This document shows, piece after piece, positions 12,001 to 15,000 of a stretch of 53,117 nucleotides of DNA. Origin of the DNA: a virus (lineage: Duplodnaviria; Heunggongvirae; Uroviricota; Caudoviricetes); IMG/VR virus record IMGVR_UViG_2718218452_000009. One strand, written 5' to 3'. Made by a program: the position numbers. Every line of letters starts with the position of its first letter. Positions within the stretch are counted from its first letter, which is position 1.

Positions 12001-15000
12001 AATAAAAACATCTCAGAATGGTGTATCCCTCAAAACGAGGGAAAATCCCCTAAAACGAGGGATAAAACATCCCTCAAATTGGGGGATTGCTATCCCTCAA
12101 AACAGGGGGACACAAAAGACACTATTACAAAAGAAAAAAGAAAAGATTATTCGTCCGAGAATTCTGGCGAATCCTCTGACCAGCCAGAAAACGATCTTTC
12201 TGTGGTTAAACCGGATGCTGCAATTCAGAGCGGCAGCAAGTGGGGGACAGCAGAAGACCTGACCGCCGCAGAGTGGATGTTTGACATGGTGAAGACTATC
12301 GCACCATCAGCCAGAAAACCGAATTTTGCTGGGTGGGCTAACGATATCCGCCTGATGCGTGAACGTGACGGACGCAACCATCGCGACATGTGTGTACTGT
12401 TCCGCTGGGCATGCCAGGACAACTTCTGGTCCGGTAACGTGCTTAGCCCGGCCAAACTCCGCGACAAGTGGACCCAGCTCGAAATCAACCGTAACAAGCA
12501 ACAGGCAGCCGTGACAGCCAGCAAACCAAAACTCGACTTGACAAACACAGACTGGATTTACGGGGTGGATCTATGAAAAACATCGCCGCACAGATGGTTA
12601 ACTTTGACCGTGAGCAGATGCGTCGGATCGCCAACAACATGCCGGAACAGTACGACGAAAAGCCTCAGGTACAGCAGGTAGCGCAGATCATCAACGGTGT
12701 GTTCAGCCAGTTACTGGCAACTTTCCCGGCGAGCCTGGCTAACCGTGACCAGAACGAACTGAACGAAATCCGCCGCCAGTGGGTTCTGGCTTTCCGGGAA
12801 AACGGGATCACCACAATGGAACAGGTTAACGCAGGAATGCGCGTAGCCCGTCGGCAGAATCGACCATTTCTGCCATCACCCGGGCAGTTTGTTGCATGGT
12901 GCCGGGAAGAAGCATCCGTTATCGCCGGACTGCCAAACGTCAGCGAGCTGGTTGATATGGTTTACGAGTATTGCCGGAAGCGAGGCCTGTATCCGGATGC
13001 GGAGTCTTATCCGTGGAAATCAAACGCGCACTACTGGCTGGTTACCAACCTGTATCAGAACATGCGGGCCAATGCGCTTACTGATGCGGAATTACGGCCG
13101 TAAGGCCGCAGATGAGCTTGTCCATATGACTGCGAGAATTAACCGTGGTGAGGCGATCCCTGAACCAGTAAAACAACTTCCTGTCATGGGCGGTAGACCT
13201 CTAAATCGTGCACAGGCTCTGGCGAAGATCGCAGAACTCAAAGCTAAGTTCGGACTGAAAGGAGCAAGTGTATGACGGGCAAAGAGGCAATTATTCATTA
13301 CCTGGGGACGCATAATAGCTTCTGTGCGCCGGACGTTGCCGCGCTAACAGGCGCAACAGTAACCAGCATAAATCAGGCCGCGGCTAAAATGGCACGGGCA
13401 GGTCTTCTGGTTATCGAAGGTAAGGTCTGGCGAACGGTGTATTACCGGTTTGCTACCAGGGAAGAACGGGAAGGAAAGATGAGCACGAACCTGATTTTTA
13501 AGGAGTGTCGCCAGAGTGCCGCGATGAAACGGGTATTGGCGGTATATGGAGTTAAAAGATGACCTGAACCGCCCCGGGTTTCCTGGAGAGTGTTTTATCT
13601 GTGAACTCAGGCTGCCAGATCATTATTTCCGATGGAAGCATAATAAGCTTTTTCTGCTTCTGCCGGAGGAATATGGCCCAGCCTTTCCAGCAATCGTCGA
13701 TTGTTATACCAGTCCACCCACGTTAGTGTGGCCAGTTCCACTTCTGTCCGGTTTTTCCAGCTCTTACGGTGTATTACCTCCGCTTTGTAAAGACCATTGA
13801 TGCTCTCAGCCATCGCGTTGTCATACGAGTCGCCAGTAATCCGGCTTCCTTAAGCCGCTGCGTGTAGGCCAGCGATACATACTGAGAACCTTTATCACTG
13901 TGATGGATTGTGCCGGACGGCCGACGGGCCCACAACGCCTGCTCCAGTGCATCCAGCACGAATGTTGTTTCCATGGATGATGAGACCTGCCATCCCACGA
14001 TGTATCCGGCGAACACATCAATGATGAACGCCACATAAACGAAGCCCTGCCATGTGCTTACCCAGGTAAAATCAGCCACCCACAACTGGTCTGGACGTTC
14101 TGCCACGAACTGACGGTTTACGCGGTCGCATGCGGCAACGGCTTTCCGGCTGACGGTAGTGCGGACCTTTTTACCCCGGAGAACACCGGCAAGTCCCATA
14201 ACTGCCATGAGACGTGCCACAGTGCATCTGGCCACTCTGATACCTTCCCGTAACAACTGACGCCAGACTTTACGCACACCGTATACCTGGTGATTTTCAT
14301 CGTATACGCGCTGTATCTCTTTCTTCAGCCAGTCATCGTGCTGCGCACGGGCACTGCGTTTATCCGGATGATGTCGCTGTTGCTGACAATGGTAATACGT
14401 TGACGGGGCAATATGCAGTTCGCTGCATACCGGTCCGACCCCGTACTGCTCACGCAGCTTATCCAGCAGTGGCATTATTTTTTCCAGAGGCGGTCGAACT
14501 CCGCCTTCGCAAAATAAGCGGAAGCCTGGCGAAGGATATCGTTACTGCGGCGCAGTTCACGATTTTCACGTTCCAGCTCTTTCAGACGCTGACGTTCAGC
14601 GGTGGTGAGTCCACCATCACCACTCCCGGTATCCCGCTCATGCTGGCGAACCCAGACACGCAGAGTCTCCGGCGTACAGCCAATCTTTGGGGCAATGGAA
14701 CAAATTGCCGCCCACTGTGAGTCATATTCATCCTGACTTTCCAGAACCATACGAATCGCCCGCTGACGGACTTCGGGGGAAAAACGAGTATTTTTAGTCA
14801 TCCTGTTTACCTCTTTCTCAGGGAGTTTAGTCTCCAGGATTTCCGGGGCGGTTCAACCATCTACATCACTGAGCTAATAACAGGCCTGCTGGTAATCGCA
14901 GGCCTTTTTATTTGGGGGAGAGTAAATCGTGGTTGAGTTGATTTTTTCTGCATTGAGGATTCTCGGTGCCATGTGGATGGTGGCGACGTTCATTGTGGTT

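Follow-up and report, generated by a model that had tools for sequence, protein, structure and literature searches.

Is replication gene P of this lambdoid prophage broken, and if it is, was it broken in the bacterium or in the assembly? The window (the whole stretch analysed, 53,117 nucleotides of IMG/VR record IMGVR_UViG_2718218452_000009) is a lambdoid prophage beginning at its own integrase gene, and its nearest relatives carry the same prophage between torS and torT. The closest of them is a prophage of Escherichia coli C7 (NZ_CP010240). The replication module is laid out as in lambda: cII, O, P, and ren. Gene O encodes a protein that differs from lambda O at three residues and is identical to the C7 protein; the ori region within it has one mismatch to lambda in 136 bp, which lies outside the iterons. 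P follows O directly, its start codon (12573) overlapping the end of O (12576), and is itself followed by ren. This is the setting in which lambda carries its helicase loader P.

The sequence-only reading had proposed that a 1-bp insertion interrupts P, and alignment with lambda J02459 and E. coli 13E0767 bears this out: one extra base at 13096 is the sole indel in the gene. The reading frame stops where that reading had placed the stop, after ...NALTDAELR. The codons CGG CCG TAA (13095-13103) close a 176-residue product ending in ...NALTDAELRP, with the premature TAA at 13101-13103. The rest of P was likewise correctly placed in the +1 frame up to position 13275: from 13099 that frame reads RKAADELVHMTARINRGEAIPEPVKQLPVMGGRPLNRAQALAKIAELKAKFGLKGASV (RKAADELVHM...KFGLKGASV) through to the normal stop. 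Over all 58 of its codons the shifted frame agrees with P without a mismatch, so a chance match is no concern. Alignment and direct reading found no second, compensating indel in P; the +1 frame simply continues to the normal stop.

The identity of the extra base had been misread. It was taken for a C (CGGCGT to CGGCCGT), but the intact sequence of the relatives is CGCCGT, and the inserted base is a G: relatives have TTACGCCGTAAGG where the window has TTACGGCCGTAAGG. Removing a C also restores the P protein, but does not restore the DNA present in every relative. Removing either G13096 or G13097 yields 702/702 bases identical to the intact P of 13E0767. The seven other differences between the window and lambda within P are substitutions, all common to 13E0767, and in alignments with P of C7 and of OkiPb01675 the extra G is the sole difference. 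Against these near-identical intact orthologues (702/702 minus one G) the P frame of the window is broken, as in a pseudogene.

Repaired in this way, P has 233 residues, differs from lambda P at three of them (V63L, T116I, and I222L), and matches PDB 8V9T across residues 1-233. The window as it stands has no uninterrupted four-domain P frame of about 233 codons; the frame stops at codon 176. The truncated product is still recognized by Pfam PF06992 (Phage_lambda_P; E=3.2e-54, 183.5 bits, cut-off 26), the match spanning profile positions 1-139 of 162. The inserted G also creates a perfect hairpin with a 5-bp stem and a 4-nt loop; the intact sequence has no such stem, and DNA folding at the site gives -6.6 kcal/mol for the window versus -5.4 kcal/mol for the intact sequence. 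The hairpin was rejected as a terminator, for no T-run follows it.

Table 1. Features of the replication module, the P frameshift, and other lesions in the prophage (window coordinates).
Feature	Position	Strand	Remarks
gam, +A at 6522	about 6513-6791	minus	private; adjoins CCTGG Dcm site
cII	11348-11644		
Replication gene O	11677..12576	+	299 aa, intact, contains ori; Pfam PF04492
Four ori iterons, then A+T-rich region	12025..12109	+	identical to lambda ori
Replication gene P, 5' part	12573..13103	+	ATG ORF, 176 aa: P residues 1-175, Pro, TAA
Perfect hairpin CGGCC-GTAA-GGCCG	13095..13108	+	made by inserted G; premature TAA in loop
Single-base insertion in P	13096..13097	+	GG in window, one G in every relative
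P, 3' part, +1 frame	13099..13275	+	residues R176-V233, then TGA 13273-13275
In-frame ATG, Met185 of P	13126..13128	+	23 nt 3' of premature stop; direct reading
ren	13272..13562	+	96 aa, intact; ATG overlaps normal P stop; 1 aa differs from lambda Ren
IS629-family (IS3 family) copy 1	13564-14855	minus	just after ren; common to C7
IS629-family (IS3 family) copy 2	15779-17089	minus	inside ninB; common to C7
Membrane-protein gene, downstream of Q	23117-23859		frameshift, A8 to A7 at 23578
gpM-like tail gene	40504-40831		2-bp deletion after 40591, TTCCCAG to TTCAG

What such a break would cost can be read from structures of the intact protein. A DnaB-lambda P structure at 2.66 Å divides P into four domains: I (1-29), II (about 30-119), III (about 120-192), and IV (193-233). 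Domain IV is a C-terminal lasso that attaches to the DnaB DH-LH nexus through its helix 211-227, and the P pentamer is built through an interface in domain II (PMC12661323). A fragment comprising residues 103-233 is by itself enough for robust DnaB binding (PMC6391071), and the N-terminal part of P is reported to bind O (PMC4926192). The window product lacks residues 176-233, which leaves domain III short of its final 17 or so residues and removes domain IV altogether. The lasso is thus encoded in the +1 frame only, out of frame with domain III. We infer that the truncated protein would lose both helicase recruitment and ring opening, to judge from the structure rather than from a P(1-175) fragment. 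With O and the ori iterons intact and the P lasso lost, the prophage could presumably form an O-some but could not load DnaB unaided.

The sequence-only reading had claimed that without intact P no DnaB is loaded at ori-lambda. As to the mechanism, this fits the DnaB-lambda P structures (PMC12661323, PMC6391071). As a claim that the prophage cannot replicate, it goes too far: lambdoid prophages within one cell can complement each other's defects, so loss of P need not stop replication (PMC2669165). The genome of C7, the nearest relative, has P-like matches in two places, and so a second one besides that of this prophage.

How widely is the allele distributed? In a set of 5,426 complete E. coli genomes, the 101 bp surrounding the P site occur in 1,475 records. 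Identity over this stretch reaches 99% or more in 1,054 of them, all without the extra G, and the +G allele is found in none of the 5,426 genomes. The best whole-gene matches are those of eight genomes, at 702/703. Scanning for the exact pattern in IMG/VR, among the GTDB representatives, and in JGI metagenomes did not find the allele, and the 176-residue product is missing from both protein indexes by exact-protein look-up. The 24 contigs read with an identical O allele represent six kinds of place. P is complete, at 233 residues, in five of these, and the end of the contig cuts the sixth. Import of the insertion from another P allele by recombination was rejected, because the gene is otherwise 702/702 identical to that of 13E0767 and the G occurs in no other allele.

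The frameshift does not stand alone in this copy of the prophage. Over the 39 kb compared with C7, the window has 11 substitutions and three small indels: +A in gam, +G in P, and a 19-bp deletion in an IS element. A fourth private indel, of 2 bp at 40591, lies beyond the part covered by C7 and is seen against OkiPb01675. The right-hand comparison was made with OkiPb01675 since the tape-measure gene of the C7 copy is split at an apparent prophage-prophage inversion. That gene is joined head-to-head to the tape-measure gene of another lambdoid prophage (window 37928-40507), so that C7 would have either such an inversion or a misassembly, which the window lacks. A C7 region near ompT was considered as the rest of the C7 copy and rejected as a different prophage. 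Several other genes in the C7 prophages are annotated as frameshifted.

The +A in gam replaces the last eight residues of Gam (QVDIDSEV) with PG and a stop. Neither it nor the 2-bp deletion in the gpM-like gene occurs in any complete E. coli genome. The same 92-residue Gam is, however, annotated in GenBank CP010238, which belongs to the same submission series and has an accession adjacent to that of C7; there the +A sits in another prophage, and the SNPs flanking it differ. Either an artefact has recurred or the allele is shared locally. The 2-bp deletion shifts the frame of the gpM-like gene after about 30 codons and is found in 0 of the 2,934 E. coli records that hold that stretch. If true, it would leave the prophage unable to make tails unaided.

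The two IS629-family copies are about 93-94% identical to each other. In the first, orfB is split by the private 19-bp deletion at 13831, on either side of which stands a 7-bp direct repeat (GCCAGTA); all top-ranked matches to the IS region have the 19 bp. The frameshift in the membrane-protein gene is common to C7, where RefSeq annotates the gene as frameshifted, and the gene is intact in OkiPb01675. Bet of the window is the common lambda allele. SNPs in bet at 6006, 6270, and 6378 were dropped as private point mutations: they match alleles in other prophages and, on that comparison, are better read as recombination. The earlier suggestion of a defective prophage thus gains support from lesions other than P: two IS insertions, one of them in ninB, and damage to the gpM-like gene, to the 3' end of gam, and to the membrane-protein gene.

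Three further regions of the prophage were noted in passing. The OkiPb01675 counterpart of the right end (about 51500-53117) is annotated with type III secretion (T3SS) effectors: an NleG family gene and, just past the window end, EspJ. By this homology the lambdoid prophage of the window is a putative carrier of effectors, from a bovine lineage of EPEC/EHEC-like type. At the rexAB position, between N and cI, lies a two-gene cassette on the minus strand (8824-10130), encoding proteins of 258 aa (DUF1828) and 180 aa (DUF6978-like). These weakly match the B and A components of the PADLOC candidate defence system PDC-M24 (E=6e-7 and 1.5e-3), and the genes may form a prophage-encoded defence cassette. 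In the nin region, a 590-codon ORF on the minus strand (18080-19852) is opposed to its neighbours and is conserved in related prophages as hypothetical; it has no match in Pfam or PADLOC.

Is the extra G real? The sequence does not decide between a mutation and an assembly error, and the evidence is about evenly split. We give an even chance to a real loss-of-function allele of lambda-type P in an already decaying prophage. One G would have been duplicated (CGCC to CGGCC), shifting the frame after Arg175, and translation would stop two codons later. The product would retain domains I and II and most of III, the part with the reported O-binding and P-pentamer functions. It would lack the lasso (193-233), the wedge into the DnaB DH-LH nexus, and would therefore neither recruit nor open DnaB at the O-ori complex. 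After induction, theta replication of the prophage could begin only if a compatible P came from another resident lambdoid prophage. Such alleles could be favoured. Replicative killing selects for mutations that keep lambda replication from starting (in O and P of the prophage or dnaB of the host, for example), and P is itself toxic (PMC4926192, PMC3640518). Loss of P would probably end the replicative killing that comes from the firing of a chromosome-trapped ori-lambda, and would probably also remove the DnaB-sequestering toxicity of P. P alleles broken or fused in separate events are frequent in public data.

Only slightly less credit goes to the rival account, a sequencing or assembly error, under which P of the strain is intact and the prophage is here no more defective than its C7 relative. 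The +G allele is found in no other sequence, including the 1,054 closely matching records, and four private small indels in 53 kb stand against few substitutions. Spontaneous indels and substitutions in E. coli mutation-accumulation studies occur at a ratio of roughly 1:10; the three indels to 11 substitutions separating the window from C7 in 39 kb are far above it. The odd, non-homopolymer +A in gam, recurring only in CP010238 and in another prophage and SNP background, has the look of an artefact of the pipeline. RefSeq complete genomes include the sister assembly C7 but not the source assembly, and the window runs unbroken across two IS copies of about 1.3 kb, which implies a long-read or finished assembly. 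The indels themselves are unlike the consensus errors of long-read or 454 data: the runs in which they sit are 1, 1, and 3 bases long, and none of the 297 homopolymer runs of at least 5 nt in the window has a private length change, so the usual error pattern is absent. The 19-bp IS deletion is, to judge from the 7-bp direct repeats that flank it, a classical slippage event. The G in P, too, looks like a spontaneous mutation, fitting both simple slippage and quasipalindrome templating: through it a 3-bp inverted repeat that was imperfect, GCC-GTAA-GGC plus an unpaired C, becomes the perfect CGGCC-GTAA-GGCCG. The arms here form a 5-bp stem only, whereas described quasipalindrome hotspots have much longer arms, and the change is accounted for just as well if one G was simply duplicated. 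On the side of a real mutation, too, C7, of the same submission series, has no pseudogenes in a 50-kb core region, and 6.5 kb of the CP010238 chromosome shows no indel against its relatives.

It is very improbable that the frameshift is real and yet not null, whether through a +1 shift of the ribosome or through partial activity of P1-175 together with a 49-residue lasso peptide begun at Met185; the same small likelihood covers residual activity of either kind, whether it served as P function or blocked lambda-type replication in a dominant-negative way. An ATG does lie in frame 23 nt after the premature stop, and the N-terminal fragment retains the reported O-binding region (PMC4926192) and the domain II pentamer interface (PMC12661323). 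That ATG is the only possible restart for the C-terminal peptide, but the Shine-Dalgarno match before it is weak (GAG), and its use is speculation. The lasso, moreover, would need its tether to domain III to hold P on DnaB, as the structure suggests (PMC12661323), and a repressed prophage does not express P. A programmed +1 frameshift was rejected: direct reading finds no slippery sequence, UUA CGG CCG UAA G allowing no +1 re-pairing, and the site is conserved in no relative, as that of a programmed shift would be. Slighter still is the chance that P(1-175) is stable and binds O and P protomers but cannot hold DnaB, and so poisons assembly of the lambda-type O-some. If this were true, poisoning on induction or superinfection would spare the host replicative killing and exclude incoming lambda-type phages. 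The restarted 49-residue lasso peptide, for its part, might bind DnaB on its own.

Whether mutation or error, the locus has close counterparts. The repaired gene is lambda P (PF06992; PDB 8V9T, 6BBM) in length, at 233 residues, and in its place between O (with ori) and ren; unlike lambda P, the frame in the window stops after 176 codons and leaves residues 176-233, including the DnaB-binding lasso, out of frame. Classical RK- and P null alleles, among them Pam3, further ambers, and mutations recovered in survivors of replicative killing by trapped prophage fragments, likewise have P or lambda initiation inactivated while ori is intact. Cells with such alleles are expected not to initiate at ori-lambda and to survive induction, and the defect to be complemented in trans; the +1 G at codon 175/176 is not among the P alleles described in the literature on them (PMC4926192, PMC3640518). 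Those alleles were selected in the laboratory and verified, whereas the window allele comes from one assembly.

The defective lambdoid prophages of EHEC and EPEC, such as the Sakai Sp pool, resemble this one in carrying effectors, IS629-family insertions, and several small lesions, and in belonging to a strain lineage with several lambdoid prophages able to complement one another or recombine (PMC2669165). The prophage of the window differs in being known from sequence alone, and some of its lesions may be artefacts of assembly. Further broken P genes in public data (P0002, P0004, P0009, P0012, and P0063) arose by independent frameshifts, an IS629-family insertion, and deletions; where P is fused, its N-terminal part runs into NinB, RusA, or IS sequence. 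In none of them does the break fall at the position seen here. P is a textbook gene whose null alleles are classical, and in P of the window a well-understood module shows either a commonplace pseudogene or a commonplace error of assembly.

The finding matters little beyond annotation. If the extra G is an artefact, P and the three other private indels flag an assembly that needs polishing before its pseudogene calls are trusted. If it is real, the prophage would replicate after induction only with the help of another resident lambdoid phage, and this would bear on the mobility of the NleG- and EspJ-type effector genes (by OkiPb01675 homology) in the strain.
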